The notes: a model not told the origin generated them from the letters alone. Shown: positions 35,116 to 55,268, counted from the first letter of the stretch. The stretch is DNA of 64,000 bases from an uncultured Methanosarcinales archaeon (GCA_964602245.1 CAZRPY010000005.1:6176-70175); one strand, 5' to 3'. Numbers and translations: made by a program.

Positions 35116-35124
35116 TTGAAGAGT

Positions 35125-35778: not shown

Positions 35779-35955
35779 TTATACTCCTTAGTCAAAAAGA
35801 GTATTATGGCACCTAAAAGATGGATGATAGAGGGCACGAAAAAGGCCATAAAAAGTAATTCATGCAAGAAATGTGGGGGGATTTTTGTTAAATCTTATGT
35901 TACCTCTTTAATGGCAATGAAGATTGGGAGGAGGTGCAAATGTAAAAAGTCAACT

Positions 35956-36477
35956 TTAAAAAGGCCTTAGGCTGTATCCATATAGGCCATTTACTCCTAG
36001 CTCTTCAAAATTGACTTCTATGTCATTTTCATAGCAGAAATCAATAAGTTTGCACAGGAAGTCTTTCTGGTCTTCTCCTTTTACAGTTATGTCAATATCT
36101 GGCAGTTCTTTGCCTTCTGTTTGAGATATGTCAAAGACATTTACTGGGTAATACCTTATAATCTCAGCCTCTTTTTCTTCTTCAGTAAGCTCATCAGGCT
36201 GCTTAATCTTGTAGATAAAAGGAGCAAGTATCTTGATGGCTTTACTGCCTGGCTTTACAGACCTGCCAAGCTGCTTCCATGTAACAAAGCCTGCTACTCT
36301 TGTAGCATTTTTGTTCTGGAAATAGATAAGCAGCTGATTATGGTAGCTGTAATTCCAAAATCTTGACATAGTGTCAAGATATTCTTTAAAGAATTCTGAG
36401 GCTTTAACTTTATCAGTTTCCTCAGCAAGTTCTTTAAGCCTGCTTTCTATCTCTTTTAAGAGCTGAGGGGCGTCCAT
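35956..36477 (-). pseudogene. ArdC-like ssDNA-binding protein, C-terminally truncated
   Basis: YSYHNQLLI..VAGFVTWKQLGR.VK.G.KAIKILAP..VFDISQTEG; ends after GLYGYS with no HExxH domain. Confidence 0.8.
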
Positions 36478-36824: not shown

Positions 36825-37244
36825 ATGAGACAAATACGTCTGCTAGTTGTATTTATTTTAATTATAACTTTATTTGGATGTTCCTATACTGCTTCTAAAG
36901 ATTCAATTAAGACTATCAAAAATATAGAGTCAAATTTAACTATTGAAGATTGCATGGAAGAAAGAAGGAGCAAATTTCTAAAAGATTTCCCTGATAAAGA
37001 ATATCATTATGATTCATTCTCTGTAAGATTTAAGGAGGGTGTAGAAGAAATTGTTATACTAGATTTAATCAGTTCTTTCAATCATACTTATAGAAAGACT
37101 CCAAGAGATCCGAGCCTTTTTCGAGTATATATTGTAAATTCAACACAAGAAGCTTCTTATTGGGTATGTAAATATCGCGAGTATGGAATAGTTAATGAAA
37201 CCTATCTCGAAGTAAAAGCTTTTGGTCATATTGCGAATCAATAA
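36825..37244 (+). CDS. putative lipoprotein with S8 propeptide-like domain
   Basis: Signal peptide with LFGC lipobox; FSVRFKEGV.. Confidence 0.6.
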   Translation: MRQIRLLVVFILIITLFGCSYTASKDSIKTIKNIESNLTIEDCMEERRSKFLKDFPDKEYHYDSFSVRFKEGVEEIVILDLISSFNHTYRKTPRDPSLFRVYIVNSTQEASYWVCKYREYGIVNETYLEVKAFGHIANQ

Positions 37245-37245
37245 A

Positions 37246-40200: not shown

Positions 40201-43200
40201 TTATACTTATACTATAATTATACTTCAGAAAATGGAAGCTCAATTATTCTTCTTTTTAGTATTGATAATTTGAACTTGACGGCTAATAGCATAACTGCAA
40301 TAAGTATTATTTACAATTCAACAAACTTCAAAGAGAACGATTCGGTAGAAATTAATGCAACAGTTTATAACTTTGGAAATGTTAGCGCATCCACCTTTTA
40401 TGTGCAATTTAAATTAGATGGAACGGCAAAGGAGAGTAAACAGATTTCTGCAATAGCTTATGGTAAGAATACAACCCAATTTTACTGGAATGCAACTGCA
40501 GGAAATCATACGATAACTATTAAAGTAGATTCAACAAATTTAATAACAGAAGATAATGAGACAAATAATGAAGCAAGTAGAGATATTTCAGTACAGGACT
40601 TAACTCCTCCATCTATATTAAGCTTATTGACAGAAAGGGGAAGCCTAAAGATTAAGCTAAATATAACCGATAATGTTAATATTAGTAGTGTTAAGGCTCT
40701 TATAAATCAAACTACAATTGATTTTACTTATAACTCCTCCACTAAATTATGGCAAGGTTTTTCTGAATCTATTGGTCCGGGCATTTATCCAATAACAATT
40801 GTCGTTATAGATTCTAGTGGATTAACAACAACTAAAAGAAGCACTATTACTGTTTATGACGAAATGTTTGATATGGTTTTGAGTAGAGGAGGGATTATTT
40901 TGAGTCCTGAAGTCCCAGCTGATGCAGAAAATGTAACAATAAGTGTTAATGTATTTAACTATGGCGCAAATCAGACAGCTAATTTCACTGTCCAAATGTT
41001 AATAGATAGCATTAATTATTCTAACAAGACTATCTCAATTCCTGGTGATAGCAATAATACTGCCTATTTTAATTGGATATCTATTTATGGGAACCACACA
41101 ATAATCGCAAAAGTAGATCCCAGCAACTCCATTATAGAATTGAATGAATCTAATAATGTTCTAAATAAGACAATAACCGTCGAGGATAGAAAGGCGCCAT
41201 TAATAAATTATATTAATATACCATATATAATATACAAAAACCTTGTATTTACTATTAGGGTTAACGCCACTGATAATATCAACATTAGCCAAGTATCTGC
41301 AACTATAAACTCTACAGTAATTGGCTTGAGCTTTAATTCAACTTTAGGGTTATATGAAAATTCAACTAGTGTATCAAATACTGGAAGCTATCCTTTCATA
41401 ATTATAGCAAAGGATATCAATGAAATAAGCACTTCGTCAGAGAAACTAATAAAGGTTTATGATACAAGTAGTGATTTAATGGTTGATATATCTGGAATCT
41501 TCTTATCTCAAATAAATTTAACTGAAAATAATAATAATTTATTTGTTAATGTAAGTGTTGAAAATAGAGGTGGAACAGCTGCAAACAATTTCAAGATTGA
41601 ATTGCTTTTAGATGGAATGTCCCTCAAAAATAATACTATGTCTTTAGCAGCAGCTAATTTGTCTAATAGTAGTTTTAATATTACAGGCTTACCTTATGGA
41701 CTTCACAATATAACAATAAAGCTTGATGCTGATAATGTAGTTGCTGAATCAAATGAAAGTAATAATAACTATAGTAGAAACGTTTTCGTTTCTGATATTA
41801 CCATGCCAAGCAATTTAGCAAATTTAGTTGTTTCACCTTCTGGCTGGACTAATCAAACATTATTTAATGTTTCTTGGAATGTAGCTATTGATTCAAATGG
41901 CATTAAAAAATACGAATATCAGGTTGATTATGGAGAATGGATTAACAACAGCTTAAACTTATCAATTATTTTCACAAATTTAACTGATGGTACGCATATA
42001 GTTTTTGTTAGGGCTATCGATTTACCTGGCAATATAGGCAACTCAAGCAATTTGACAATAAAAAAAGATACCACAATACCAAATACACCTGTTGTTAGGG
42101 AATGGCACTCTGGGAATAATTGGTCACAGGATAATACGCCATACTACACTTGGGAAAATCCAGGAGATGAAGGCAGCGGAGTTTCTTATTATATAGGTAG
42201 TTTAGACGGATTAGAGTTTAACTTAAGCATTAATTTGTCATATTCACCTACATTAACTACTGGCAACCATTCATTCAAAATTTACGCGGTTGACATGGCA
42301 GGTCACAGAAGCAATTGGTCAAACGAGCCAATTGTTTTTATAGATACTTCAACTCCAGATTTACCAAACGTAACTTCAATAACACATCAAAATAGTAGTA
42401 AATGGTATTCTCAAAACCATGTAGTGATAAATTGGACTATTCCTTATGATGATTCAGGAATTTACGGTTATTATTATGCTATCGATAAAATTAATGACAC
42501 AATTCCAGATGATTTGTCGCTTTTTACAACTAATACAACTATAAACATTTCTGAGGTTATTGCTCCACAAATAGCAACAAATGAAAGCAGTGAAACCAAT
42601 GTGACTGGTTTACCTGATGGTATATGGTACTTCCATATAATTTCTAGAGATAATGCAGGAAATATAGGCTCTAATGCAACTCATTATTCTGTTAGAATAG
42701 ATACAAGAAAGCCACATATCTTAAATTTTACTCCTTTAAATAATTCTGTAACTTTGAATAATACGCCTTTATTTAGGATAGATTATATAGACAGTCTTTC
42801 TGGCATTAATTTAAGTTCAATAAATTTAACTATAGATGGAATTAATGCGACTAATATAACTATAAATGATACTACTCTGACATATATACCTACTTCAAAT
42901 TTATCAAAAGGTATCCATACAGCAGCTATAACGATAAAGGATAATACAACAAATACAAATGTATTTACTTGGCAATTTTCTGTTGGGAATTTAACATTAG
43001 ATATATCTAATTTTTCTATTATTGAGGATCTAGGAACAATAAAAACATTTGAAATAGTTATTAATAATCCAAGCGAAATAGACGCAACTAATGTTAAATG
43101 GATTTTAGAGACTAATGACAATTTAGTAATTAATAGTTCTCAGCCTTTCAATCTATCTGCAAATGAGAGATTATATCTGTATTTGAAATACAACTTTAGC

Positions 43201-43572
43201 CGAAGTGGAGATCTTAATCTTAAGATAAATGCTACATCTTTTGGTACTGTGACAAATAAAACAATAGCAATCTCTGTGCCAGCAGACTTAGATATCAGTA
43301 ATTTATCAGTGTTATATTCAAATTCAACATTAAGACATTATGAAATTTCTATTAAGAATAGATTGAACGTTACTCTGAATGGAATTAATTGGACGCTTGA
43401 TACAGGATTGGCCAACATCTCAAGCGCATTAAATTTTACATTACAAGTCAATGAGACTATTTATGTATACGCTCAGTATAATTATACTGCGGCAGGGACT
43501 TACATAATTAATGCAACAGCAAAAAAGAATGAATCTCTATGGGATTCAAAAACGATTAATATTACTGTATAA
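37246..43572 (+). CDS. giant secreted S8 (subtilisin) protease with CARDB/Ig-like repeats
   Basis: Triad VPDTGID / GHGTHVIG / GTSMAAPHV; repeated VD..N.I.E.NE.NN CARDB motifs; many N-X-S/T sequons. Confidence 0.92.
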   Translation: MTSIIKKESKFVIMFLLLLFTMHLTYAKDSNETPIISNSIITKLESGTKEVEVEIILRDFQSLYNKEKQKKIKNDTFGEKIRYKKEKQDTIKSLLTSSEFRIRKESIYGNGIIGYISKEGLDKLKDNPLILVIQPRTIGHIATADSSSIIRSDYVNKKLNINGSHETVCVPDTGIDNTHNEFSDDIINQTCFCNLGNGCCPNGQLTDSNASDDNGHGTHVIGIITGNGKFANGNTGIASNSKIVAIKIANSEGNLDFSDAQDAIDYCILNKNKFNISVISMSFVDSSSHPTSACNVHPGFSSSITTAYNNNITLVAATGNRGYTNGIGYPACHANVIAVGATYDKDLGRQPATYEGTTYRDWLGNSFANCTDENTKLDDITCFTSRSSLLDLLAPGARIYSTVPLFVSNFGYNEQVGTSMAAPHVSAAVTLLIQYVKQINGTSLRPPEILDILNKTGVPIFDSSIGITFYRIDIAAALAYVTTNNVNEIINGSIKHGQLWSTKLNVQDFDNKKLTVDLTWDTSDTLDLFLISPSGQQYTNENTGSINPRKIHMDNASSGIWTIKVNGTNVNLKGHSDFNVITSKETLPNSPPGGINFTFAQLNYISACNSTSEGLTVVLKGETNSSKPIVDITNKTNLTSNAFLTGLIIPNAKMLVNLPLGRVDLDPILARTETGRVMLDADIKLKFSMYNTQEAKDKYKNITQEWFSFLEQSPYINEIKGSGYDGAFQWESRQWVSPNSLKAEGEGCKIFLTNATLRVQSLLRWAHSNIDGYNLRQEAKDDVKNRFDSWRSNLTKWLNDNAARTEAAVNSESQYDDLRYVYASVALAQWYKTLDRSQVLFGNIINSNDIYSTNLNISFDENYWKPLTNQRITENIYLNSCFKQGSSGCYVWIFGGVSYVNLNTNVTGTLSNSTKNLIISAINSSYAQSLSENKTYYYANFIELRRADLEPISMWFSSITPNINHDFNVSVAIENNGKLDANNFTLYLYYNYTSENGSSIILLFSIDNLNLTANSITAISIIYNSTNFKENDSVEINATVYNFGNVSASTFYVQFKLDGTAKESKQISAIAYGKNTTQFYWNATAGNHTITIKVDSTNLITEDNETNNEASRDISVQDLTPPSILSLLTERGSLKIKLNITDNVNISSVKALINQTTIDFTYNSSTKLWQGFSESIGPGIYPITIVVIDSSGLTTTKRSTITVYDEMFDMVLSRGGIILSPEVPADAENVTISVNVFNYGANQTANFTVQMLIDSINYSNKTISIPGDSNNTAYFNWISIYGNHTIIAKVDPSNSIIELNESNNVLNKTITVEDRKAPLINYINIPYIIYKNLVFTIRVNATDNINISQVSATINSTVIGLSFNSTLGLYENSTSVSNTGSYPFIIIAKDINEISTSSEKLIKVYDTSSDLMVDISGIFLSQINLTENNNNLFVNVSVENRGGTAANNFKIELLLDGMSLKNNTMSLAAANLSNSSFNITGLPYGLHNITIKLDADNVVAESNESNNNYSRNVFVSDITMPSNLANLVVSPSGWTNQTLFNVSWNVAIDSNGIKKYEYQVDYGEWINNSLNLSIIFTNLTDGTHIVFVRAIDLPGNIGNSSNLTIKKDTTIPNTPVVREWHSGNNWSQDNTPYYTWENPGDEGSGVSYYIGSLDGLEFNLSINLSYSPTLTTGNHSFKIYAVDMAGHRSNWSNEPIVFIDTSTPDLPNVTSITHQNSSKWYSQNHVVINWTIPYDDSGIYGYYYAIDKINDTIPDDLSLFTTNTTINISEVIAPQIATNESSETNVTGLPDGIWYFHIISRDNAGNIGSNATHYSVRIDTRKPHILNFTPLNNSVTLNNTPLFRIDYIDSLSGINLSSINLTIDGINATNITINDTTLTYIPTSNLSKGIHTAAITIKDNTTNTNVFTWQFSVGNLTLDISNFSIIEDLGTIKTFEIVINNPSEIDATNVKWILETNDNLVINSSQPFNLSANERLYLYLKYNFSRSGDLNLKINATSFGTVTNKTIAISVPADLDISNLSVLYSNSTLRHYEISIKNRLNVTLNGINWTLDTGLANISSALNFTLQVNETIYVYAQYNYTAAGTYIINATAKKNESLWDSKTINITV

Positions 43573-43584
43573 GGAGGTAAGAAC

Positions 43585-45549
43585 ATGAAAAAAGTAATAG
43601 GGGTATTAACAGCTACTTTTTTGATGAGTCTGCTCTTAGCTCTTAGTGTAGTTGCTTATACTAAGCAGGACTATTTGCAGCTTGTTGAAAATAAGGCAGA
43701 TATAACGACAGGTTATACATGGTATAGAATATGTAATCCCACTCCTGTGCCTTACTCAATTAGCGATAGCTCTAAAATTAATATAACCTTTGTTAAAGTA
43801 AAAAATAAGTTAAATAGTTACAGGTATACTAAATTGACTAATGTTAGCTATTCTATAACTAAGTACGATAAATTTTGTACTTCTTTTAATATAACATATT
43901 CCCTTACTAACACAACTCCAGAACATACTGAAACTTATACTGATTGCGCTTTAAGAGCAAACGGCACTACAACTGGTTATAAATTAGAATGGGTGGAATG
44001 GAATCCCCTTGGACAAACAATACTAGCTAATACTTGTTATGATGTGAAGGTAGAAGGAAAATATCCTGCAGTGCTTGGAGGAACTGCTATTGATAATATG
44101 GTTTCCTTTGCTGGTTTTAGCTATCCAGAATATGCATGGTGGAACACTACATGGAATAGTAGATGCCAAATTAACTTAACAGCTACAGGAGATATCTTAC
44201 ACAATAATAGTGAAGATAATCCTTGGGACTATATAGAAATAAGACCTACCCCAGAATGTAATTTTAACTTTAGCGGGGATATTAAAGATGTAAGAATTGT
44301 TAAGAATAATACAGATGGCACTATGACTTCTTTAGTGAGAGATAATTATAAGAACCAGTCCATTATCTTTATGTTAAATTCTTCTATAAATGGAACAACA
44401 GATTCAAACTATTACCTATACTTTAATGCAACAGGGGTAGGAGAACCTTCTCAGACTGATTATGTTGTATTATCTGGAGCAGGAAATATTTCTGTAAGAA
44501 ATAGGATATATAATATAACAAATTGTGCTATTTCAAATTGCATTAATAGTAATGGAGATGATGCTGATAAATGCTTTGGTTATAATCTTGCTTCATTTAG
44601 CATCGATGGAGAAAATAGTTTTGCATGTGGTGGAGTTGCTTTAGATGCAAATTCTAAACAATGCAGCCTCAGATTCGATGGGTATGTAATGGGAGAGGTA
44701 TTTTGTGAAAATCAAGGTTCTACTAAACCGTCTAATTTATATAAGATTTATGCAAATAGTTTCATTAATATAACCTCTTCAGTTGCTACTTCTGCTTCTC
44801 AAGGCTCTGTTAGAGATGTATTTGATGGTACTACAGACACCAAATGGTATGATGGAAAAATCGAAAGAGATATAGGTGCTGATCCTAATACAAATTTTGA
44901 TTCTGACTTATATGGAAATGGGACAAGTATAGGCCGTAGATTTGGTGGATCTTGGAACAAGGATATTATTGTTAAAGAGTGGTATGTTCCACAAAGTAAT
45001 GTTTATACAACTCAAGTAAGAAATACATATAATGGCAATGGATTTCAAACAGTATATGCTATAAATACCAATGGTCCTAGCTATAATTTCTCAAGATGGT
45101 TTGGTATGGCAACTAATCAATCTAGTGATTCAACATGGTATTATAGAGGAGATTATCTTGCAAAAGGATTGAGGAATCCTGTTACATACAAATTGGGAAA
45201 TAGTGAAGTTCAACCTAGTGGACCAACTTTTGCAACTGAGTCTGAAGGAGATGATTCAATAGAATCTGGCATTAACACAAGTGTTATAAATGGTTCTACT
45301 ATCTTAAGTAACCAGCAAGTGTATATAAGAACACAGAATAATACTCAAGTATTAGGGAAGTTTGATAAAGTAGCTATATCAGGGAATCAGAGATGGGCCT
45401 TTAACTATGTAACAGCTTCAGACCCAACTAGCCAGTTTACCAATATGGTTAATATAACACCAAGCTTTTATGTACTGGAGTTTGCCAATAGAACTAGCAC
45501 TAACATTAGTAGGGAAGTAAGTGGTTTCATTAATGCAACTAAACAGTAA
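43585..45549 (+). CDS. secreted surface protein (DUF2341-like central region)
   Basis: Signal peptide; WWNTTWNSRCQI..DVRIV..YYLYF. Confidence 0.7.
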   Translation: MKKVIGVLTATFLMSLLLALSVVAYTKQDYLQLVENKADITTGYTWYRICNPTPVPYSISDSSKINITFVKVKNKLNSYRYTKLTNVSYSITKYDKFCTSFNITYSLTNTTPEHTETYTDCALRANGTTTGYKLEWVEWNPLGQTILANTCYDVKVEGKYPAVLGGTAIDNMVSFAGFSYPEYAWWNTTWNSRCQINLTATGDILHNNSEDNPWDYIEIRPTPECNFNFSGDIKDVRIVKNNTDGTMTSLVRDNYKNQSIIFMLNSSINGTTDSNYYLYFNATGVGEPSQTDYVVLSGAGNISVRNRIYNITNCAISNCINSNGDDADKCFGYNLASFSIDGENSFACGGVALDANSKQCSLRFDGYVMGEVFCENQGSTKPSNLYKIYANSFINITSSVATSASQGSVRDVFDGTTDTKWYDGKIERDIGADPNTNFDSDLYGNGTSIGRRFGGSWNKDIIVKEWYVPQSNVYTTQVRNTYNGNGFQTVYAINTNGPSYNFSRWFGMATNQSSDSTWYYRGDYLAKGLRNPVTYKLGNSEVQPSGPTFATESEGDDSIESGINTSVINGSTILSNQQVYIRTQNNTQVLGKFDKVAISGNQRWAFNYVTASDPTSQFTNMVNITPSFYVLEFANRTSTNISREVSGFINATKQ

Positions 45550-46953: not shown

Positions 46954-47523
46954 ATGCGAGGCGATAAGAGAGAAAGAATCCTGAGGGTATTGTTAAGTAG
47001 CAAGGAAGCATTAAGCAAGAATGAACTCTCAAAACAGGCAGAATGCACTAGGCAGTGGGTTATTCTGTTTCTAAAGATATTAGAGAAAAAGAAGCTGGTA
47101 AAAGGGACTGCTCCCCTAGAGAAAGAAAAGATTCTGGACTATTGGATAAGTATCTCAAAAAAGCCAAGAAAATATAGAGACTACATGGTCAAAGAGCCCT
47201 TAGAGATAATAAAAAAGTCTAAGCTAGAGTATGCGCTCACAACCTATCAGGCAGAAAACATTGTCCAGCATTATCTTTTTCCTTCAAGAGTAGACGTATA
47301 CATATCAGAAGGTGATTTAGATAGTTGGCATAGCCTTATGACGAAGCATGGGCTGTATGGAAAGGGAAATGTTAGGATCATAATAGCAGATGAACATGTA
47401 CGTTTTGCAAAAAGGATTATAAATGGGCAGGCAATAGTCTCAATACCGCAGCTTATCGTCGATTTAACCAAGGAAGGCGGTCCCTGTACAGAAGCTGCTG
47501 AGATGCTGAGGAAGAGGCTCTAA
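46954..47523 (+). CDS. wHTH-containing AbiEi-like antitoxin/regulator
   Basis: N-terminal HTH; C-terminal IVSIPQLIVDL..GG...EAA. Confidence 0.75.
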   Translation: MRGDKRERILRVLLSSKEALSKNELSKQAECTRQWVILFLKILEKKKLVKGTAPLEKEKILDYWISISKKPRKYRDYMVKEPLEIIKKSKLEYALTTYQAENIVQHYLFPSRVDVYISEGDLDSWHSLMTKHGLYGKGNVRIIIADEHVRFAKRIINGQAIVSIPQLIVDLTKEGGPCTEAAEMLRKRL

Positions 47524-48294
47524 ATGTATAAAGAATTTGAAACTAGGACTTCGTATAATTACTTAAAGCAAGTCATTAAGAGCTTGAATGAACCTATTTG
47601 CATTCTAGGCGGATGGGCTGTTTTCTTTCATGCTAATACGAAATTTGAGAAAGCTCAAGGCAGGCCCTATATAGGCAGCAGAGATATTGACTTGGGATTT
47701 AACGTTAGCGGAGATTTAAGAAAGTCAGCTCTCTCCAAAACAATAAAAACGCTGACAGAAAAGCTCAATTTTAAGCCATTAAGTTTCAGGCTTGTAAAAG
47801 AAATCCATACAGAAACAGAAGAAGAGATTACGGATGGAAAGATTGTGCCAGCTCACTTTATTTTTCCGATGTATATTGACCTGATAACAGATTCAATTCC
47901 TAAAGACTTTAAGAAAATATTTGGATTTAGTCCGATAGATGAGCCATTGCTCAAAACTATGTTTGAGAAAAAAGCTTTTACTATCATGAAGGAATTCGAT
48001 AAAAAGCTGCTTCTTCCAACGCCGGAACTTCTCTTGGCAATGAAAGTAAATTCTCTTCCAAACAGGGATAAGGAGCATAAGAAGATAAAAGATATTTGTG
48101 ACATGTTTGCTTTGGCATGGTACACGGACATTAATCCTGAAACAGTAAATCTAACAAAATATGTCTCTGATAAGAACCTTAAGAAATGCCTGAAAACAAT
48201 AACAGATGAGGATTTTGAAAAGGCAGCTATCCAGATTGGGCATGAAAAGGAAGAACTAAAGAGAGTGATTAGCCTTCTCTGCGAAAAGAAATAA
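47524..48294 (+). CDS. AbiEii-like nucleotidyltransferase
   Basis: ILGGWAV..SRDIDL..LLAMK..KDICD. Confidence 0.8.
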   Translation: MYKEFETRTSYNYLKQVIKSLNEPICILGGWAVFFHANTKFEKAQGRPYIGSRDIDLGFNVSGDLRKSALSKTIKTLTEKLNFKPLSFRLVKEIHTETEEEITDGKIVPAHFIFPMYIDLITDSIPKDFKKIFGFSPIDEPLLKTMFEKKAFTIMKEFDKKLLLPTPELLLAMKVNSLPNRDKEHKKIKDICDMFALAWYTDINPETVNLTKYVSDKNLKKCLKTITDEDFEKAAIQIGHEKEELKRVISLLCEKK

Positions 48295-48674: not shown

Positions 48675-51497
48675 TCAGCCTTCTTTTTGCTTCTGAATCA
48701 GTTTTTCTTGGCTTATTTCTTGCGATTTTTTGTCCGCTGAAAAGTAACCCCTCAACTGCTTGCACACATTTTTTCTTGTGAATGTTGTTCCATAAGCTTC
48801 ATACTTGTAGGCATAAGGGGCATCAGAAACCACAAAAAACCATTCTGCAAAATTCTCATTCAGAACAGCAACCTTTTTCTCAAGCAAATCTTTTCTTTTT
48901 TCTAATGTAATACCTGTTTCAACCTCAATAGCAATTTTCTTTTTGCCAACTTCAAAAACTATATCAGGATTATTAGTCTCAAAAGTCTTTACCTTATCTG
49001 TAAATTGCAGTAAATATTCCTCAACCGCTTTGACCAAGAAAAAATGTGTAGTGCTTTCCCTTGAAGATGGCTTTAATAAATAAACCTCTTGTCTTCCTCC
49101 TCCAAGAGGCACATGAGAGCTTAGAATATATTTCTTATCTAGCAAAAATTTTATTTCATCCTCATTCAGATTTTTCTTTAAATAATATCCTTTATCTTCA
49201 TCTACTTTAATTGAAACTTTGGGTTTCTCATTCTGAATAGGAGTTTCTTCATTAATTTTTAAAAGCTCATCTGGATTAGTGGTTATTAGCCTATGCTCTT
49301 CTTTTGATGCAATGCTCCTTATCTCAGTATGCTCATTCTCCATTAATAAAATGCCTTCTCCAACATTAGCAGTAAGCAGTTTTTCCTTTTCTGTTTGGCT
49401 TAAATTAAAAGTCTTTACAACATTTTCAATTACTGCAGCTTCTTGCCTCATTAATAGTTTATAAGCAGAATTTTGCAGAATGGCACTAGAAGCTTTACTT
49501 ACTAATAAGTCAGCCACATCTTGAGTTATCAAAAGTAAGCCTAGATTGAATTTCCTGCATGTTTTAACTATTTCAAAGATATATTCAGAATCCTCAGCCC
49601 TGCTTAATAATGACCATGCCTCATCAATAACCAATAATTTTCTTTCTCTATCTTTTCTCATTTTCATATAAACATAATCAAGAATGAGAAACATGTTTAC
49701 TGGTTTAGCTTGCCTGGGCATATCTCCTATTATAAAGCCGACTAATTGGTTATCAAAATTAATCTGGGTTTGCCTGTTAAAGAATGAGAAAACACCATCA
49801 ACATACATTGAAAGCCTGTTAATTAAACTTCTGTAAGTCTCTTTTTCAATAATAGTAGCTTTTTTTGAGAGTTTTTCTAGCTCTTCCAATAAATCTCCTA
49901 AAATTGGAGGCTCGTTATTCCATGTTTTTGGATCATTAGTAATGCCTTTTCTTTCGTAAGTTAGGGTTAATGTCTTATCTAAGACTGCTTTTTGTATTTC
50001 AGAAACATCACCTAGCATTATAGGGAACAAATCCATTAAGGATAGCCTTTTCTCTGCATAATCATGCCCTAGTAAGTCAAGAGGGTTAATTACTGTTTTT
50101 GAAGTCCTAGAGAAATTAACAATCTGCCCATCAAATGTCTGGATAAGCTTAATATATTCTGATTGAGGATCTACTATCATAACCTTAACAGAATTAAGCA
50201 ATTGCCTTATAATGAATAATTTAGTCCAATAACTCTTACCAGCTCCTGAACTTGCTAAGATAATGCCATTTGGATTGGGAAGCTTGAAAATATCCTTTAT
50301 AATAGGCACATCATTCTTGTTTACGCCCATCCATACACCTGAAGCATTTAACTGTAAGAATTGAGAAGTGAAAGGGAAAAATGCAGCTAAGGCTTTAGTA
50401 GTGATATTTCTTCTAATGCCTAACTCATTCTCAGCTAAAGGAATAGTGGATTTTAAGCCTGCTTTCATCCTGAAGAAGGCCCTTCTAGGAATAATTAGCA
50501 TGGCATTAAGCTCAGCCTCTACCTTTTTGGTTATTAAATCAAGCTCTTCCTGGTTGTTTGCCTTACAATTTATGTATAAAGAAACATAGAATAGCTTTTC
50601 ATTTCCTTTTTGCAGATTTTCAAGAACAGCTCTAGTATCTTGATATTGAATCTCTAAAGTTGGATTAATAGTAGATTTTAATTCTGCTGAAAAAAGATCA
50701 GCTCTCTGCTTTTGGAGTTCTCTGTTAAGCATAATCATCATGGATTCTATAGAAATTGGCTCTATAAAGATAGAAATATCAAAAGTGCCATTTAAAGTAA
50801 TAATCTTATCTAAGAATCCTATTTCAACCATACGTGGATAGCCATCAGCATATACAACCCTGCATTCCTTATTGCCAACAATAATCTTCTCTGGAAGATT
50901 CTTAATATATGTAGGGGCTATTATATAATGCAGATAATTATCCTTATCTATCTCTGTGCCAACTTCCTTTAATTTATCACTATCTTCTAAGACATCATTA
51001 AAGAAACTGGTTAATGCCTGTGTTAATTCTTCATCATTAAGTCTCTTAAATTTTAGATTTAATGCTTTAAGCTGTTGCTCTACCACACCAATTTGAACTT
51101 CTAAGCCTATCTCTATTTTCTCAGGTATTACAATAAAGAAGCTTCTATTCATTACAGAATTATCTTTTATAGTGTTAATCAAATGCTCTTTATAACTCTC
51201 AAAGTGCTTATTAAAGATATATTTCTTGGTTTTGCTTACAAGCTCTTCTACCCTTAGTTCTAAAGCGTTTATGTAGCTATCAAGATTAATGTGGTTAGTG
51301 CTTATAACTATCTGTATAGGAAAGTCGAGAGCATTTAGGAATTTCTGAAATCCGCTATTAATCCCCAGTTTTTCCTGTTCATTTCTAATAGTGAAGTTTA
51401 TAGGCTCGACTTCTAAGATTGCTAATCTTATCAAGTCTATTTCTTCATTTACCTTGGATGAACTTATTGGCAAAAGCCTTTTTAGTTTTGCTAACAT
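48675..51497 (-). CDS. virB4: VirB4-like conjugative ATPase with C-terminal PD-(D/E)XK-like domain
   Basis: ASSGAGKS, VDPQSEY, INPLD, VIDEAW, RKFNLGLLLITQ; tail H..PDIVF..IAIEVETG. Confidence 0.88.
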   Translation of the reverse strand: MLAKLKRLLPISSSKVNEEIDLIRLAILEVEPINFTIRNEQEKLGINSGFQKFLNALDFPIQIVISTNHINLDSYINALELRVEELVSKTKKYIFNKHFESYKEHLINTIKDNSVMNRSFFIVIPEKIEIGLEVQIGVVEQQLKALNLKFKRLNDEELTQALTSFFNDVLEDSDKLKEVGTEIDKDNYLHYIIAPTYIKNLPEKIIVGNKECRVVYADGYPRMVEIGFLDKIITLNGTFDISIFIEPISIESMMIMLNRELQKQRADLFSAELKSTINPTLEIQYQDTRAVLENLQKGNEKLFYVSLYINCKANNQEELDLITKKVEAELNAMLIIPRRAFFRMKAGLKSTIPLAENELGIRRNITTKALAAFFPFTSQFLQLNASGVWMGVNKNDVPIIKDIFKLPNPNGIILASSGAGKSYWTKLFIIRQLLNSVKVMIVDPQSEYIKLIQTFDGQIVNFSRTSKTVINPLDLLGHDYAEKRLSLMDLFPIMLGDVSEIQKAVLDKTLTLTYERKGITNDPKTWNNEPPILGDLLEELEKLSKKATIIEKETYRSLINRLSMYVDGVFSFFNRQTQINFDNQLVGFIIGDMPRQAKPVNMFLILDYVYMKMRKDRERKLLVIDEAWSLLSRAEDSEYIFEIVKTCRKFNLGLLLITQDVADLLVSKASSAILQNSAYKLLMRQEAAVIENVVKTFNLSQTEKEKLLTANVGEGILLMENEHTEIRSIASKEEHRLITTNPDELLKINEETPIQNEKPKVSIKVDEDKGYYLKKNLNEDEIKFLLDKKYILSSHVPLGGGRQEVYLLKPSSRESTTHFFLVKAVEEYLLQFTDKVKTFETNNPDIVFEVGKKKIAIEVETGITLEKRKDLLEKKVAVLNENFAEWFFVVSDAPYAYKYEAYGTTFTRKNVCKQLRGYFSADKKSQEISQEKLIQKQKEG

Positions 51498-51810
51498 AGA
51501 CTACCTCCTTGTCTATCTTTTTTATGCCTAGAAATTGTATCATCTTTGGATCCATCAGCTTGACTTCTCTAAATTGCAGCCAAGATAGCATGTCTTTCAT
51601 ATAAGAAGCAAAATTGAAGAACATGAACAAACTGGCTATTCCAACTAGAATAATGCCTATACCAATTTTAAGGAAAATATCTAATTTTGTTCTTAAGAAT
51701 ATTGCTAATGCTGGAATAATAAAAATAGCTGCATATAATAATTGCTTAAATGTCAATCCAAATATGATTTTTTCTTCGTATTGCAATTGTTGTGGGATTT
51801 CGTAAGGCAT
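51445..51810 (-). CDS. PrgI/VirB3-like membrane protein
   Basis: MPYEIPQQLQYEEKIIFGLTFKQ plus 2 TM, directly upstream of virB4. Confidence 0.8.
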   Translation of the reverse strand: MPYEIPQQLQYEEKIIFGLTFKQLLYAAIFIIPALAIFLRTKLDIFLKIGIGIILVGIASLFMFFNFASYMKDMLSWLQFREVKLMDPKMIQFLGIKKIDKEVVYVSKTKKAFANKFIQGK

Positions 51811-51819
51811 TTTTCTCTC

Positions 51820-52734
51820 CTATGTTTTTACAATCTTAGTAACTGCTCTGCCTACATCTGAATTTATAACTGCAAAAGCTGATTTAACAATAGCAAAGAA
51901 TATTAGGAAAATCATAGAGATATTAATCAGTGTAAATGATGACACCATTAACACTATTTTATAATTCTGATATGCTGGAATCTCAAGCAGTTTAGATGCT
52001 GTAAGAAGTATTAATGAATGGATAAAAGGCAAGAATATGATTATTAATAATATATTAATGATTAATTTGCCATAGCTCTTTAATGGAGGTATAAAATAAA
52101 GAAATAATCCGAAAGGAAAAAGGGTAACTCCAACTGCAACTAGCAAGTATCTCAAGGATAGTAGTATTATGGTTAATAATAAAGTCAATAAATAAGGAAT
52201 AGCTAAAATTAATTGTAAGCCTATATTTACTACATTATCAACTGTTAATAGAAAAAAGTTAGGGTCAATTAGATTAATTACGCCTGCTGTCATAGAGGAG
52301 GATAGCTCTATTAGTGCAGAATAAATGTAAAAAGAAGATTGGACAAAGAATATCATTAGTAATACATTTTTAAGCCATAATTTTGCTTTTTCTCTTCTTT
52401 CTGCTGAATATCCTGATACGATTAAATTAAAGCCTGCGAAGATTATGAATAAACCATAGAATAGAGAAATAATATAGATTATGATTGCCCACAAAGATAT
52501 GAAATTATCAATAATAACTGGCTCTGTAAGAAAGTGTTTAGTAAGGGTAAGGAAAGGTTGCAAAGGAGCATTAATGATTGTAAGAGTGTATTCGTATAAT
52601 TTCTGAGAGATACATGAAGCTAAGTTTGTGATACCGCATTTTTCTTGCTCTTCTTGGGCGTAGGATAGGGGTACGAATAGGAGAATTAAAAATAAATACA
52701 TTAATCTACTTCTTAACATATCAAATACCTCCAT
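51820..52734 (-). CDS. VirB6/TrbL-like polytopic membrane protein
   Basis: Signal peptide plus ~6 TM within the tra operon. Confidence 0.65.
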   Translation of the reverse strand: MEVFDMLRSRLMYLFLILLFVPLSYAQEEQEKCGITNLASCISQKLYEYTLTIINAPLQPFLTLTKHFLTEPVIIDNFISLWAIIIYIISLFYGLFIIFAGFNLIVSGYSAERREKAKLWLKNVLLMIFFVQSSFYIYSALIELSSSMTAGVINLIDPNFFLLTVDNVVNIGLQLILAIPYLLTLLLTIILLSLRYLLVAVGVTLFPFGLFLYFIPPLKSYGKLIINILLIIIFLPFIHSLILLTASKLLEIPAYQNYKIVLMVSSFTLINISMIFLIFFAIVKSAFAVINSDVGRAVTKIVKT

Positions 52735-52817
52735 TTTTGTAAAAATAGTGAAAAAGAAAGAAAACTAAATATGGTCTAACAATTAAGGAATATTTATAAA
52801 TTGTAAATAAGTTAAGT

Positions 52818-53270
52818 ATGTTATTCATGTCATCCTCAGAAGATCATAAAATTGTTGTTAGAGAATTGATTGATATAGGTAAAAATAGAGGATTTAAAAT
52901 AAACGAATCTGGAAAAGAGCTAAGCGAACTAAAAAAGAAAGGATATAGAATAAAACCTGATGTTGTATGGAAAAAAGATGGAAAAATAAGGTATATTTTT
53001 GAAGTTGATAGAGGAGCTTATGATAACTATCCCAAAACTATTTATGGAAGTATGCTAGTAGGAATTATTTTGTCTAAATTCTATGATTGCACATTTTATG
53101 AAATAACTTTTAAATCACCAAATAGTAAAAAAGTAATGCGGATTTTAAAATTATTCAAGAAATATGTTATTGATTCAAAAAAGATTAAGTTAATAATTGT
53201 ACCTTATAGGAAACCTACTCCTTCTGCTAGACGGAATTATTATTGGTATTTGACTAAAAAGATTCGTTAA
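52818..53270 (+). CDS. PD-(D/E)XK restriction-endonuclease-like protein
   Basis: H..PDVVW..IFEVD. Confidence 0.6.
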   Translation: MLFMSSSEDHKIVVRELIDIGKNRGFKINESGKELSELKKKGYRIKPDVVWKKDGKIRYIFEVDRGAYDNYPKTIYGSMLVGIILSKFYDCTFYEITFKSPNSKKVMRILKLFKKYVIDSKKIKLIIVPYRKPTPSARRNYYWYLTKKIR

Positions 53271-53320
53271 GTCGTCGGCTTGTGTTGTAGCAGTTCCATA
53301 ATCTTAGTTTTCCCCTAGGA

Positions 53321-54670
53321 TTACATCCAAAATACATATTTTCTAATTACTAAGTAAAGTGAATAAAGCACTCCTGAGAAAACTCCAAAATTTATGACAA
53401 AATTCCAAGTATCTTTCCTCTTTACATGAATGATTTGCTGCACTTCTCTTTCTTCTAAATATGCTGTTATTTTATTTATAGAAGATTTAGCCCTTAATTG
53501 TACTGAATTTCTACCTAAGATTTCTTCATTGCCATATTTAATCTTGATAGGTGTATTTTTTGGCTCTAAAGTAATATGTATGGTTTCATTCTCATTATAT
53601 TGCAGTTTATCAGTTCTTATTTCAAATAATGGCAAACTATCATTAAGGCTACAATTTTCTTCCCATTTATGAAAATGATCATAATAGGTTATTTTGCACC
53701 TATTAGAATTAGCTATATAAAACTTATAGCTGCTATTTAATTGTTCAATATTGAGATTATTCAGTTCTTTTTTAGTATATTTATTAGCTCTGAATGTTAA
53801 AACATCATATGGAGGAAAACTTACAGTTACATCATAATAATAATTAAATTGGCTAAAGGAGGAATTCTCAAAATCTAGAGTAAAAGCATCAAAATTGGAT
53901 ATATTAAGAATACCCAAAGTTGTATTATGATACCTATTAACAGTTTTAATTTTAGGAGAAATTAGAGGTTTGTGATGATAAGCTTGTTTAGAGTCCTGAA
54001 GGTTTAATTCGTCTGTTCTATATTCTGTATTTTCATATTGGCATACAGTGCAATACTTATGGCAACCATTTTCATCTCTTCTGCAACAATACTGATAATT
54101 TCTATAGTGTTTTACTTCAATAGTAGCCTGAATCCAAAGAAGAGCATTAAAGCTTAAATTGCCTGTACCATTAAAATCACTAAGCACTGAATCACCTATC
54201 AATTCATTATTAAGGTAAATGGTCAGTTGCTTGTTATCGCTGGATAGACTAAACTCTGTCTTACAATCGCCTGGTTCAATCCCTGATGGTATTTCAACCC
54301 AATAATTATAGGCGCTTAATACCTTGCCATAACCAGGATTTAATAAATCATCTTTAAGCCACACAGAAGGCATTATAGCAATAATTCTAAGCCAAGCATC
54401 TCTGATATAGCCTTTGTCTATTGTTTTTATCCCATAAGGAGCTGTAGTGAAATTTATGCCTGTATTCCAGTTTAGGATAAAACTATGGTTTGCATAATAC
54501 GCATTTGAGTACATGATATTACCTACCAATAGCTGTTTTTCTAGGTCTGATATATTGCTTTGAATTATCTCATTGCACACAGCCATATCCTCTTCAGGAA
54601 CATTGCTGCAATTAAGTGCATAAACAACTGGCAAATTCAAAAACAAAACAATTATTATAGCAATTTTCAT
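53321..54670 (-). CDS. secreted, C-terminally anchored protein of the tra operon
   Basis: Signal peptide MKIAIII, Cys cluster, C-terminal TM; ATGA overlap with the pilin gene. Confidence 0.75.
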   Translation of the reverse strand: MKIAIIIVLFLNLPVVYALNCSNVPEEDMAVCNEIIQSNISDLEKQLLVGNIMYSNAYYANHSFILNWNTGINFTTAPYGIKTIDKGYIRDAWLRIIAIMPSVWLKDDLLNPGYGKVLSAYNYWVEIPSGIEPGDCKTEFSLSSDNKQLTIYLNNELIGDSVLSDFNGTGNLSFNALLWIQATIEVKHYRNYQYCCRRDENGCHKYCTVCQYENTEYRTDELNLQDSKQAYHHKPLISPKIKTVNRYHNTTLGILNISNFDAFTLDFENSSFSQFNYYYDVTVSFPPYDVLTFRANKYTKKELNNLNIEQLNSSYKFYIANSNRCKITYYDHFHKWEENCSLNDSLPLFEIRTDKLQYNENETIHITLEPKNTPIKIKYGNEEILGRNSVQLRAKSSINKITAYLEEREVQQIIHVKRKDTWNFVINFGVFSGVLYSLYLVIRKYVFWM

Positions 54671-55023
54671 CCTATTAGCAGATTTACCACAAAGGGAGCT
54701 GCCCATATTACTGATAAGCCAATGATTACATAAGCTGCCATGTTTTTGCTAGTATCCCTTTTCTTAACATCATTACCTGAGAACATATAATTCATGCCCG
54801 CAAACAATAAAGCTATTACAGCTATCAATGATGCTGCATATTTGAGAAAATTATATATCTTCAAAATTGGTGTTAAGATACTGTCAAACTGTTGCTTTTG
54901 ATCTGGAGTAATCTCTGTGTTAAGATCTGCTGCATGTACTACTGGCAATGAAAATACAAAGCCTATCAGTAAGAATTTAGATAACAACACCAAAAATCTC
55001 CATGTTGCATTTTGTTCATTCAT
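54667..55023 (-). CDS. TrbC/VirB2-like pilin
   Basis: Signal peptide, two TM helices with FAGMNYMFSG..KRDTSK..YVIIGL. Confidence 0.8.
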   Translation of the reverse strand: MNEQNATWRFLVLLSKFLLIGFVFSLPVVHAADLNTEITPDQKQQFDSILTPILKIYNFLKYAASLIAVIALLFAGMNYMFSGNDVKKRDTSKNMAAYVIIGLSVIWAAPFVVNLLIG

Positions 55024-55080
55024 AATACACCTCCTGTAAAATCTGATTAGAAATAGGAAGAAGAAATTACTTTTAAACTT

Positions 55081-55131
55081 TGTATTGATTTTGTCAATAC
55101 AGGAAATTTTGTATTTACAGCTTCAATACAA
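55081..55131. promoter_or_regulatory. paired palindromic operators between the tra operon and an RHH gene
   Basis: TGTATTGA-N5-TCAATACA and TTGTATT-N9-AATACAA. Confidence 0.55.
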
Positions 55132-55268
55132 GATTTAAATATTATAATTGGATTTTGATAAACTTAAAATGAATAAAAAAGAAATGATCCAAGAGATTCA
55201 AAGGCAAATGCTTCATAAGATTGCAGGAGCTATTGAAGAAGCAAAGCAGAAGCTGGTTGAGGTAAAGA

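Follow-up and report, generated by a model that had tools for sequence, protein, structure and literature searches.

The Ced and Ted systems of archaea import DNA with a machinery based on VirB4, VirB6 and VirB2 and without a relaxase (PMC9905601), and Ced requires a second, VirD4-like ATPase, CedD (PMC11823120). For archaeal conjugative plasmids as well as Ced/Ted, no relaxase has been identified and the origin of the transferred strand is described as unknown (PMC9905601, PMC12857230). HerA-NurA has been proposed as the source of ssDNA in Ced/Ted, and a nuclease fusion is not among the features that this source reports for them (PMC9905601). The T4SS of Patescibacteria, which belong to the monoderm class, mostly lack a relaxase and are thought to have been co-opted for other roles; the word "nuclease" is absent from the main text of that report (PMC12102498). 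MOBC relaxases (TraX of pAD1, MobC of CloDF13; Replic_Relax, PF13814) are members of the PD-(D/E)XK superfamily that start conjugative transfer; by the account of PMC12857230, a covalent intermediate has so far not been reported for them.

The window, i.e., the whole stretch of 64,000 nucleotides that was analyzed, lies on a 76-kb contig (C5) of a genome estimated to be 100% complete. It contains a five-gene DNA-transfer-like operon on the minus strand, encoding a pilin, a 461-aa anchored protein, a VirB6-like protein, a PrgI/VirB3-like protein, and a 940-aa VirB4. The same operon had been read in an earlier note on this DNA, and its ORFs were recovered as follows, listed with the other features of the region:

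55071-55141, minus strand: putative control region upstream of the pilin gene, an inverted repeat framed by two TATA-like boxes (sequence reading)
54667-55023, minus strand: VirB2/TrbC-type T4SS pilin, 118 aa (PF18895 45.4 bits and PF04956 (TrbC) 41.7 bits, both above cut-off)
53321-54706, minus strand: 461-aa Cys-rich protein of the module family "461fam", with N-terminal leader and C-terminal hydrophobic anchor
52818-53270, plus strand: 150-aa ORF within the module, with its own KPDVVW..IFEVDRG motif and a weak PriA_C match
51820-52734, minus strand: VirB6-like polytopic channel protein, 304 aa (weak fold match)
51445-51810, minus strand: PrgI/VirB3-like protein, 121 aa (PF12666 30.5 bits, above the cut-off of 27)
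48675-51497, minus strand: VirB4, whole protein, 940 aa (ATPase profiles and C-terminal tail)
49284-51497, minus strand: VirB4 ATPase proper, residues 1-738 (PF19044, AAA_10, DUF87)
49203-49283, minus strand: linker, residues 739-765, modelled with lower confidence (mean pLDDT 61 and 81 in the first and second block of 10 residues of the tail model)
49074-49202, minus strand: small beta-alpha-beta-beta subdomain, residues 766-808 (DSSP E33-35, H41-49, E53-57, E66-70 in tail numbering)
48774-49058, minus strand: PD-(D/E)xK-type nuclease core, residues 814-908 (predicted fold and residue conservation)
48678-48773, minus strand: C-terminal helix and K/E/Q-rich protein end (helix 173-201 of the tail model)

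Core membrane parts of a conjugative T4SS, the VirB2-type pilin and the VirB3/PrgI-like protein, were thus detected with all profiles above cut-off. With the PrgI/VirB3-like, VirB6-like, and VirB2-type genes in one operon, the module resembles T4SS of the monoderm type (MPF_FA/FATA; Firmicutes/Tenericutes ICEs, Patescibacteria), and the models nearest to its VirB4 are the VirB4 models of CD1110 and the Mycoplasma ICE (313 and 317 bits). Compared by description only, it also shares with Ced/Ted a minimal inventory, namely a VirB2-like pilin, a VirB6-like channel, and a VirB4-like ATPase, and the absence of a relaxase (PMC9905601). Unlike monoderm T4SS, however, it was found with no VirD4, hydrolase, or other accessory genes, its VirB4 bears a C-terminal nuclease-fold domain, and its host is a DPANN archaeon. 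It differs from Ced/Ted in that no second ATPase of the CedD kind was found with it, and in that it sits within integrase/tRNA elements in relatives.

A second copy of the module occurs in the same genome (C9), where the pilin paralogue is 67% identical and only those five genes are common to both copies. The leader and anchor of the 461-aa protein were read from its translation, which matched nothing in Pfam or NCBIfam; 461fam was found in 22 of the 82 loci or contigs examined, positioned between the pilin and the VirB6-like gene. The 304-aa protein had been labelled VirB6-like, a label for which a weak match was found at the level of fold. Its AF2 model is all-helical (pLDDT 89.4) and the top five Foldseek rows against the PDB are all TrwI/VirB6 of R388, though weak (E 0.036-0.1, prob 0.80-0.95, TM 0.26-0.37), whereas no Pfam match above cut-off and no PDB profile or sequence match backs the label. 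Residues 83-126 of this protein gave a weak T4SS_pilin match. The PrgI-like gene and the start of VirB4 share 53 nt, read in different frames, and in several relatives, with a length of about 1000-1095 aa, PF12666 and VirB4 are parts of one protein. The 150-aa opposite-strand ORF showed no BLAST similarity to the VirB4 tail and is probably not part of the transfer machine; modules of relatives also contain opposite-strand ORFs, which are unrelated.

The ATPase was assigned to VirB4 by PF19044 (P-loop_TraG) at 77.9 bits (cut-off 25.8) and PF12846 at 58.2 bits, together with a VirB4 N-domain. The CD1110-type model NF045971 reached 313.2 bits, below its equivalog cut-off of 325, and the Mbov_0397 ICE VirB4 model 317.4 bits, below 590, so that, judged by NCBIfam scores, the protein is related to both equivalogs and a member of neither. 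The extra N-terminal module formerly suspected in this VirB4 was not borne out: NF045971 aligns over residues 29-721 (model positions 28-729 of 752), and since position 28 of the model falls on residue 29, the N-terminus is an ordinary N-domain. The extra part is confined to residues ~740-940. It corresponds to the ~190 aa that had been noticed after the ATPase, and the motif ESTTH..NPDIVFEVGKKKIAIEVETG is present in the translation.

The suggestion that this tail is nuclease-like was strengthened by its predicted fold and by its conserved acidic residues. The AF2 model (pLDDT 92.9, pTM 0.82) contains the PD-(D/E)xK core arrangement alpha-beta-beta-beta-alpha-beta, within the element order alpha-beta-beta-beta-alpha-beta-alpha-beta, preceded by the small subdomain, which is conserved alongside the core and aligns in stand-alone homologues. 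VRR-NUC (Z 6.5), R.BspD6I (Z 6.4), and Hjc (Z 6.4) were the top VIA-align rows, followed by many other PD-(D/E)xK nucleases; the top matches covered 86-110 aligned residues, with 14-17% identity in the top three rows. Foldseek placed FokI (E 5.8e-3, prob 0.96), XPF/ERCC1, HindIII, and Hef first (prob 0.96-0.98). These scores are middling, as the best Z is 6.5, where the tool itself cautions that values below 8 may reflect a common arrangement, and no Foldseek row reaches E<=1e-3. No Pfam family reached significance with the window's tail.

Across 82 homologues, aligned with a mean column identity of 21%, H818, D845, E858, and E860 (tail H80, D107, E120, E122) are invariant, and E814 and K875 (tail E76, K137) are kept in at least 90%. 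In the model these residues sit on helix 1, the start of strand 2, strand 3, and the next helix, and together they form a candidate active site. The motifs read E814, P844-D845, and E858-x-E860, with K875 on the following helix; the third motif is therefore ExE rather than ExK, the canonical Lys being replaced by Glu (E860). The tail shares its core fold and the placement of acidic residues with small PD-(D/E)xK nucleases (VRR-NUC, Hjc/AHJR-like, the R.BspD6I small subunit, CoiA), but differs in the ExE motif, the extra N-terminal subdomain, and the long C-terminal helix.

The D...ExE...K pattern, invariant in a MOBC alignment (A5), is present in the tail too. No significant similarity to MOBC was found: PF13814 did not match the tail, and hhalign of the tail alignment (A2) against 20 MOBC sequences gave a probability of 0.9% and E 0.061 with D, E, and E in register, a comparison that covers Enterococcus-type members only and leaves room for remote homology. 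MOBC relaxases are free-standing, have an N-terminal winged-helix region, and work with VirD4, whereas the tail is either joined to VirB4 or anchored in the membrane. Separately, 10% of the members of the nearest Pfam-named ESM Atlas cluster (score 0.81) carry Replic_Relax, a weak lead.

No recognizable relaxase or VirD4 had been noted in the island, and the searches extended this to the whole genome for the families covered. Coupling-protein families PF02534, PF12696, and PF10412 gave 0 matches with positive controls, a result that holds for these families and not separately for the TcpA class. Relaxase families PF03432, PF03389, PF08751, PF01076, and PF02486 likewise gave 0 matches with positive controls, MOBH (TraI_2) and the MOBM tyrosine-recombinase type lying outside this set; PF13814 also had 0 matches, but its control matched nowhere either. 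Of the components of a conjugative T4SS, a coupling protein and a relaxase of known MOB class are therefore missing among the families searched. The survey of related elements that the earlier note had called for agreed, in that no coupling-protein or known relaxase family occurs among the recurrent neighbor families of 80 related loci. In a class sample of 401 genomes, PF10412 exceeded 50 bits only 3 times, in 2 genomes, both without the tail domain.

The tail retrieved 522 cluster representatives with phmmer at E<=1e-3, and 49 proteins of VirB4 length carry it, a recurrence that on sequence comparison is far beyond chance. It is fused to VirB4 in 61 of the 80 related loci. In the class sample, 29 of the 34 VirB4-positive genomes carry the domain (two match lists compared by hand), and the fusion is therefore the rule in this VirB4 clade. 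The domain itself is patchy, occurring in 45 of 401 class genomes with up to four matches per genome, and 16 of these 45 have no VirB4 match, so the domain can work without a resident T4SS. The hosts of the module are DPANN archaea, labelled Nanobdellota, Woesearchaeota, and Pacearchaeota. No relatives were found among 2.9 million viral contigs, and no description of a VirB4 fused to this nuclease-fold domain was found in the literature.

In relatives, integrases and DNA methylases are found repeatedly in the vicinity of the module. The integrase of L031, L052, and L071 comes right after a tRNA gene, and in L031 the 3' end of tRNA-Thr recurs as a 19-nt direct repeat at a distance of 16.7 kb, with the integrase and the module in between. 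L031 is thus a candidate for a complete integrated element of 16.7 kb with tRNA-Thr repeats; the standard relaxase and coupling protein that a complete homologue might have encoded were not found in a scan of 10 of its 11 non-module ORFs. No integrase was found on C5, and the C9 copy directly follows histidine-biosynthesis genes with no adjacent integrase, so neither copy is visibly inside an intact element.

The tail domain also exists as a separate gene, often membrane-anchored, and 49 of the top 150 tail representatives have N-terminal hydrophobic segments. Tail-only loci place it directly after a tyrosine integrase in 11 of 19 cases. tRNA genes lie upstream of the integrase at L056, L065, L077, and L045, and also at L019, where one small ORF separates the integrase from the tail gene. 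Of five genomes tested that have tail-only genes adjoining or near an integrase, three lack a VirB4 match. Fused and stand-alone forms are interleaved in a quick tree, whose well-supported branches can only be explained by at least 3-4 switches between the two architectures. Elements with an integrase and a stand-alone nuclease, set beside those with the full module, parallel the mobilizable and conjugative integrated elements of bacteria.

We tentatively favor the reading that the tail is an endonuclease tethered to the motor, where it would take over from a relaxase the processing of DNA for transfer, a plausible reading that falls short of probable. From the observed gene content, fold class, residue conservation, genomic contexts, and absence of known relaxase and coupling families, we infer catalysis, its substrate, the direction in which DNA would move, and any connection with transfer at all. 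The pilin, the anchored surface protein, the VirB6-like channel, the VirB3-like protein, and VirB4 would form a compact T4SS-like DNA-transfer module of DPANN archaea with VirB4 as its sole motor ATPase. A flexible linker of ~25 residues would tether the predicted metal-dependent PD-(D/E)xK endonuclease to the VirB4 C-terminus. VirB4 assembles as a hexamer at the base of the channel, on the cytoplasmic side, which would place the nucleases at the entrance; there they may nick or cut the DNA to be moved and pass the end to the motor. The nuclease would then replace the relaxase, and VirB4 would additionally take the role of the coupling protein. Known PD-(D/E)xK nucleases hydrolyze DNA without a covalent intermediate, and the proposed mechanism therefore gives no account of DNA piloting. 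In relatives, the module would reside inside tRNA-integrated elements with a tyrosine integrase, and reduced elements would consist of the integrase and the stand-alone nuclease.

A wider proposal, which we consider rather doubtful, is that the tail founds a new archaeal family of transfer-initiating endonucleases, the functional counterpart of the relaxase that archaeal conjugative elements are not known to have. Tethered to VirB4, it would allow five-gene, single-ATPase conjugation without a coupling protein; membrane-anchored beside an integrase, it would serve mobilizable elements that borrow machines. If true, DPANN archaea would own an ICE/IME-like mobilome based on a PD-(D/E)xK enzyme. 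A nuclease-fold domain on the sole motor ATPase of a minimal archaeal T4SS is in any case a concrete candidate for the missing DNA-processing step. With ~180 residues and named candidate catalytic residues, it can be produced and tested for activity without a culture of the host. The module is also a pointer to a family of elements integrated at tRNA genes in DPANN archaea, a group about whose mobile elements little is known, and it may be a natural case of a T4SS that functions without a coupling protein.

The direction of transport could also be inward, with Ced/Ted-like uptake or scavenging of host DNA by an epibiotic DPANN cell and a cytoplasmic nuclease that processes the incoming DNA, e.g., through degradation of one strand, trimming, or breakdown as a source of nucleotides. 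The relaxase-free import by Ced and Ted (PMC9905601) and the presumed co-option of the mostly relaxase-free Patescibacteria systems (PMC12102498) fit such a role, as do the C5 and C9 copies without an adjacent integrase. The competence nuclease domain CoiA_nuc (PF06054) is the commonest weak Pfam match among the 82 tail homologues (6/82, best E 4.6e-4; AHJR-like follows with 5/82), but the window's tail has no match to it. A patchy, multicopy distribution fits an accessory mobile trait better than core feeding or repair, relatives are located in tRNA/integrase elements, and import can hardly account for integrase-adjacent stand-alone copies in genomes without VirB4. We consider import unlikely.

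Defence, exclusion, or addiction, in which a membrane-placed restriction-like nuclease destroys incoming DNA or a toxin stabilizes the element with no processing for transfer, appears quite improbable. Restriction-modification genes, Fic, reverse transcriptases, MNT-HEPN pairs, and AbiEii-like genes abound in the module neighborhoods, and the hydrophobic segments would suit a membrane location. Prophages often carry exclusion genes next to the integrase, which is where the stand-alone copies lie. The PADLOC type II REase model matched 5 of the 82 homologues weakly (best E 9e-4), but no PADLOC family matched significantly and the window's tail had 0 matches. A consistent in-frame fusion to a T4SS motor across the whole VirB4 clade would be unexpected for a defence gene, and the absence of relatives from the viral contigs also speaks against it.

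The fold could instead be a non-catalytic VirB4 module for DNA binding, oligomerization, or regulation, e.g., one that recognizes the substrate as a coupling protein otherwise would. The Glu at the position of the canonical Lys and the inactive folds ERCC1 and FAAP24 among the fold matches are consistent with this, and the small N-terminal subdomain, judging from the model, could bind DNA. The invariant D, two E, and H with the near-invariant E and K across such diverged homologues nevertheless form a conserved metal-site pattern, of which D...ExE is invariant in MOBC as well, and we regard inactivity as very unlikely. That a standard relaxase and VirD4 were once in the island and then lost, as the earlier note allowed for its truncated side, or lie outside the window, is largely refuted and scarcely credible: the window does contain an IS4-like transposase and further mobile-element genes at a distance of 12-20 kb, which make rearrangement possible, but the genome-wide searches, the C9 copy with only the same five genes in common, the scanned ORFs of L031, and the recurrence of the five-gene module as a unit in dozens of relatives without relaxase or coupling genes all speak against it.

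Upstream of the module, the inverted repeat of the putative control region, which may be an operator or a transfer origin, consists of tgtattga (55101-55094) and tcaataca (55088-55081). The C9 copy retains this palindrome with changed inner bases, and L001 matches it too.

The source genome (1.37 Mb in 42 contigs, ~33% G+C) was estimated at 100% completeness with 1% contamination and includes the window as bases 6176-70175 of a 76-kb contig. Five co-directional minus-strand ORFs lie exactly where the earlier note had placed them and form a T4SS-like module, preceded by a candidate regulatory or origin-like site:

55071-55141, minus: conserved palindrome tgtattga / tcaataca between two TATA-like boxes, ~50-80 nt before the pilin start
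54667-55023, minus: VirB2/TrbC-type pilin, 118 aa (PF18895, 45.4 bits; PF04956, 41.7 bits)
53321-54706, minus: Cys-rich protein of 461 aa, hydrophobic at both termini, without family match
51820-52734, minus: polytopic, plausibly VirB6-like protein of 304 aa (fold match only)
51445-51810, minus: PrgI/VirB3-like protein, 121 aa (PF12666, 30.5 bits, cut-off 27)
48675-51497, minus: VirB4, 940 aa (PF19044, 77.9 bits)

The structure of the 304-aa protein was predicted from 28 homologues with a pLDDT of 89.4, and the top five Foldseek rows against the PDB were all TrwI/VirB6 of plasmid R388. Since these rows lie at E 0.036-0.1, the VirB6-like label is plausible, not proven. The PrgI and VirB4 genes share 53 nt (51445-51497), read in two different frames, as in the closest relatives, and many more distant relatives encode PrgI, VirB4 and tail as one protein of about 1000-1095 aa. 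The palindrome could be an operator or origin-like site. Upstream of the pilin it is confined to the closest relatives, namely the second copy on contig C9 of the same genome, where the inner bases are altered, and locus L001; two other matches among the loci sit elsewhere. The module is interrupted by a 150-aa opposite-strand ORF without family match (52818-53270, plus), whose own KPDVVW...IFEVDRG motif marks a possible small PD-(D/E)xK nuclease; comparison with the VirB4 tail found no similarity and ruled it out as a relative. Unrelated ORFs on the opposite strand also occur inside the modules of relatives.

The NCBIfam CD1110-type VirB4 model aligned residues 29-721 to model positions 28-729 of 752, with a score of 313 bits, slightly under the cut-off of 325. 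As the alignment begins at residue 29 and model position 28, the N-terminus is an ordinary VirB4 N-domain, and the extra N-terminal module proposed earlier was not borne out. PF26593, a precomputed label on VirB4 relatives, is probably an N-terminal VirB4 domain, since it is missing mainly from tail-bearing proteins that are N-terminally shortened. Residues ~740-940, the tail, had no Pfam match, and no significant family was obtained for them in NCBIfam, PADLOC or PHROGs either. A tail profile run against PDB sequences returned a single chance-level match of 28 residues (E 0.31). When 1.84 billion cluster representatives were scanned in full with phmmer, 522 matched at E<=1e-3, and 49 VirB4-length proteins carry the tail; by these matches it is a real, widespread domain. 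Two proteins (P0067 and P0086) are in-frame hybrids with an integrase-like, SAM-like region at the N-terminus and the end of VirB4 plus the tail behind it; they may mark recombination junctions or stem from faulty gene calling.

An AlphaFold2 model of the tail, built from 82 homologues, reached a pLDDT of 92.9 and a pTM of 0.82. From N to C terminus it comprises a short linker, a small beta-alpha-beta-beta subdomain, a core of the order alpha-beta-beta-beta-alpha-beta-alpha-beta, and a long terminal helix. Exhaustive structural comparison, in which Z below 8 can reflect a common arrangement, matched it to VRR-NUC (Z 6.5, rmsd 2.9 Å, 86 aligned residues), the small subunit of R.BspD6I (Z 6.4, 3.5 Å, 110 residues) and Hjc (Z 6.4, 3.4 Å, 96 residues), with many further PD-(D/E)xK nucleases in lower rows, such as Can2/Card1, Bax1, Hef, Vsr and T7 endonuclease I. 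Foldseek placed FokI at the top (E 5.8e-3, prob 0.96), followed by XPF/ERCC1, HindIII and Hef, with no row at E<=1e-3. H818, D845, E858 and E860 are invariant in 82/82 homologues at a mean column identity of 21%, and E814, P844 and K875 are found in at least 90% of them. These residues map to helix 1, to the beginning of strand 2, to strand 3 and to the helix that follows, a placement classical for PD-(D/E)xK enzymes except for the ExE of the third motif and the later lysine. The assignment follows from this residue pattern together with a match list drawn almost entirely from one superfamily; at middling fold scores, the nuclease fold suggested earlier for the tail thus held up in the predicted model. 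A homodimer prediction scored 0.25 against a mark of 0.42, which weighs neither way on binding.

The nearest functional precedent is the MOBC relaxase family, PD-(D/E)xK enzymes that start conjugation (PMC12857230). CloDF13, tried first as a MOBC source, offered three candidate ORFs without Pfam match, and the MOBC-typed 'replication-relaxation family protein' of pTEF1 was used instead (116 homologues, 20 aligned). E132, D155, E173, E175 and K179 are invariant in the 20 sequences, so that the D...ExE...K variant is common to these MOBC proteins and the tail. Profile-profile comparison with this 20-sequence alignment brought D, E, E and the following strand into register over 62 columns, and was not significant (probability 0.9%, E 0.061). 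In the ESM Atlas, the closest clusters were Nanobdellota without family name (0.97 and 0.95), and the nearest Pfam-named cluster was Replic_Relax (10% of members) at 0.81, within chance range. The tail is therefore placed in the superfamily as a new family, one that would be MOBC-like in motif and context, the similarity being too low to count it as a MOBC member. Full-text searches of the open literature, main texts only, turned up neither a VirB4-nuclease fusion nor the tail domain.

The tail was fused to VirB4 in 61 of 80 related loci, some of which are cut by contig ends. Across 401 genomes of the class, it occurred in 45 (38 of 235 genera, at most four matches per genome) and a window-like VirB4 in 34; 29 genomes had the two at adjoining coordinates in a manual cross-reading. 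Of the five genomes with VirB4 and no tail, G107 and G159 held no more than weak fragments, and G258, G268 and G397 had distant VirB4s (26-35% identity). Judged by this distribution, the fusion is a clade trait. Relatives, mostly metagenome bins, were labelled Nanoarchaeia, Woesearchaeota, Pacearchaeota and Nanobdellota; a few Methanosarcinales, Babeliales or Bdellovibrionales labels are presumably binning or labelling artefacts. No tail relatives were found among the viral contigs and plasmids searched.

A second module copy in the same genome (C9:17244-24101, loci L092/L093) encodes a VirB4 83% identical to that of the window. The two copies have the five module genes in common and nothing else, which argues that these genes behave as a unit. 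Histidine-biosynthesis genes immediately precede the C9 copy, and an MNT-HEPN pair comes after it. About 10 kb upstream of the first gene of this copy, and 15.7 kb before its VirB4, there is a tyrosine integrase (C9:5588-6862).

The domain occurred without VirB4 in 19 of the 80 loci. In 11 of these (L039, L045, L056, L058, L065, L068, L070, L075, L076, L077, L079) a same-strand tyrosine integrase immediately precedes the domain, often with overlap, and L019 makes a twelfth case with one small ORF in between. A tRNA gene precedes the integrase in L019, L056, L065 and L077, and lies ~900 bp away in L045. Among the 150 best of the cluster representatives matching the tail, 38 carried it with a whole or fragmentary VirB4, 53 as the domain alone, 49 behind N-terminal hydrophobic segments (typically two) and a basic linker, and 10 in other architectures. 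No VirB4 match was found in three of five tested genomes with integrase-linked tail-only genes, nor in 16 of the 45 tail-positive genomes of the class. A quick maximum-likelihood tree of 80 domains (SH-aLRT support only, midpoint root, two short rows dropped) interleaved fused and stand-alone tails, and its well-supported branches force at least 3-4 architecture changes; stand-alone L019 was sister to fused L043 of the same genome with a support of 100. By analogy, integrase with transfer module and nuclease, against integrase with nuclease alone, would mirror bacterial ICEs and their derived IMEs.

In relatives, a DNA methylase in opposite orientation usually comes first, then a small ORF and the pilin. 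Next stand a member of the 461-aa family, or instead a ~130-aa protein, the VirB6-like gene and (PrgI-)VirB4-tail, and behind them variable cargo, often restriction-modification genes. Among 30 relatives inspected, 8 had an integrase at a distance of a few genes upstream, with a tRNA gene immediately before it in L031, L052 and L071. Matching of tRNA genes to downstream sequence gave a clear repeat in one of nine loci, L031, where the 3' end of tRNA-Thr (19 nt) is repeated directly 16.7 kb downstream. Apart from the integrase and the module, the stretch enclosed by the repeats contains a DUF559 endonuclease-like gene and eight more ORFs. An exact-repeat search around integrase/tail-only genes at 14 loci returned nothing convincing. 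The window copy is less clearly mobile than those of its relatives: its contig has no integrase, and housekeeping genes, namely an A-type ATPase operon, eIF2-gamma, NOG1 and L10e, lie within 20 kb either side of the module. Its other neighbours are as follows:

34018-36477, minus: IS4-like DDE transposase (PF01609), PDDEXK_1 (Cas4-like) nuclease and ArdC-N protein in a row
37222-43572, plus: secreted giant protein of 2116 aa with subtilase S8 domain, four CARDB and Big_13 repeats
43585-45549, plus: 654-aa protein of no known family, next after the giant
46954-48294, plus: HTH protein and AbiEii-like nucleotidyltransferase (weak, E 9e-4), converging on the VirB4 3' end

ArdC-N proteins are of an anti-restriction/ssDNA-binding type known from conjugative plasmids, and a similar gene also lies near the VirB4-tail module of L001; ArdC-N, PDDEXK_1 and family f67 had one homologue each among the loci. 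The HTH/AbiEii-like genes look like an AbiE-type toxin-antitoxin or defence pair. The 2116-aa protein may sit on the surface of the DPANN cell or take part in its interaction with a host.

The absence of a recognisable VirD4 or relaxase, noticed earlier for the island, extends across the genome for the families searched: coupling proteins PF02534, PF12696 and PF10412 and relaxases PF03432, PF03389, PF08751, PF01076 and PF02486 gave no match with working controls. These five relaxase families lie outside the MOBH and tyrosine-recombinase types, and PF13814 was likewise without match, as was its control everywhere. Across the 401 genomes, PF10412 had 143 nominal matches, nearly all to the Walker-A region only, and three exceeded 50 bits, in G234 and G258, both without tail. 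G258 shows the classical arrangement, its distant tail-less VirB4 (26% identity) lying ~2.7 kb from a VirD4-like gene on the same contig. Clustering of 1270 proteins from the ORFs of the 80 loci and two own contigs returned as recurrent neighbours tyrosine integrases, N4/N6, HsdM and C5 DNA methylases, HsdR, Fic, reverse transcriptase, DUF2779 and an AsnC-type regulator, among which no ATPase or nuclease qualifies as an overlooked relaxase or coupling protein.

The operon is a reduced relative of monoderm (MPF_FA/FATA) conjugation machinery. The Patescibacteria T4SS is described as derived from the same machinery and likewise mostly without relaxases (PMC12102498). From sequence, predicted structure and context, on which all functional statements on the module draw, the reading we tentatively prefer is that the tail would be an endonuclease tethered where a single-ATPase channel opens to the cytoplasm, and that it would nick or cut the element's DNA so that transfer begins.

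That the module instead imports or scavenges DNA is unlikely: the Patescibacteria and archaeal Ced/Ted precedents, the latter with a similarly minimal gene set (PMC9905601), and weak CoiA_nuc matches in 6 of 82 tail homologues fit such a role, whereas the patchy, multi-copy, integrase-linked distribution fits it poorly. Ced itself requires the VirD4-like CedD (PMC11823120); no VirD4-type protein was found for the window module. MNT/Polbeta nucleotidyltransferase-HEPN pairs directly follow the tail gene in L001, L070, L072, L002 and C9, and recur after fused and stand-alone tails alike. Such defence-rich neighbourhoods, and membrane-anchored, integrase-proximal tail copies, would suit a function in defence, exclusion or addiction; this reading is quite improbable, as clade-wide fusion to the VirB4 motor does not fit it and no PADLOC family matched the tail. 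A non-catalytic DNA-binding role for the tail is very doubtful, being hard to reconcile with its invariant acidic residues. Loss of relaxase and VirD4 genes at the truncated side, the alternative in the earlier note, is essentially excluded; that note had looked to complete homologous elements for a standard relaxase and coupling protein, and L031, the closest case, shows neither in the 10 of 11 non-module ORFs scanned.

No RNA run matched the stretch, and its best match among DNA runs was a groundwater metagenome, probably the source sample. Genomes of the class also contain open frames of 3,500-8,000 aa with a TrwB/VirB4-type Walker-A match (e.g., G222:C4, G313:C8 and G014:C1). These recall the SPEARE-type giant proteins of nanohaloarchaea, which have a VirB4/TraG-like ATPase domain (PMC10266531).
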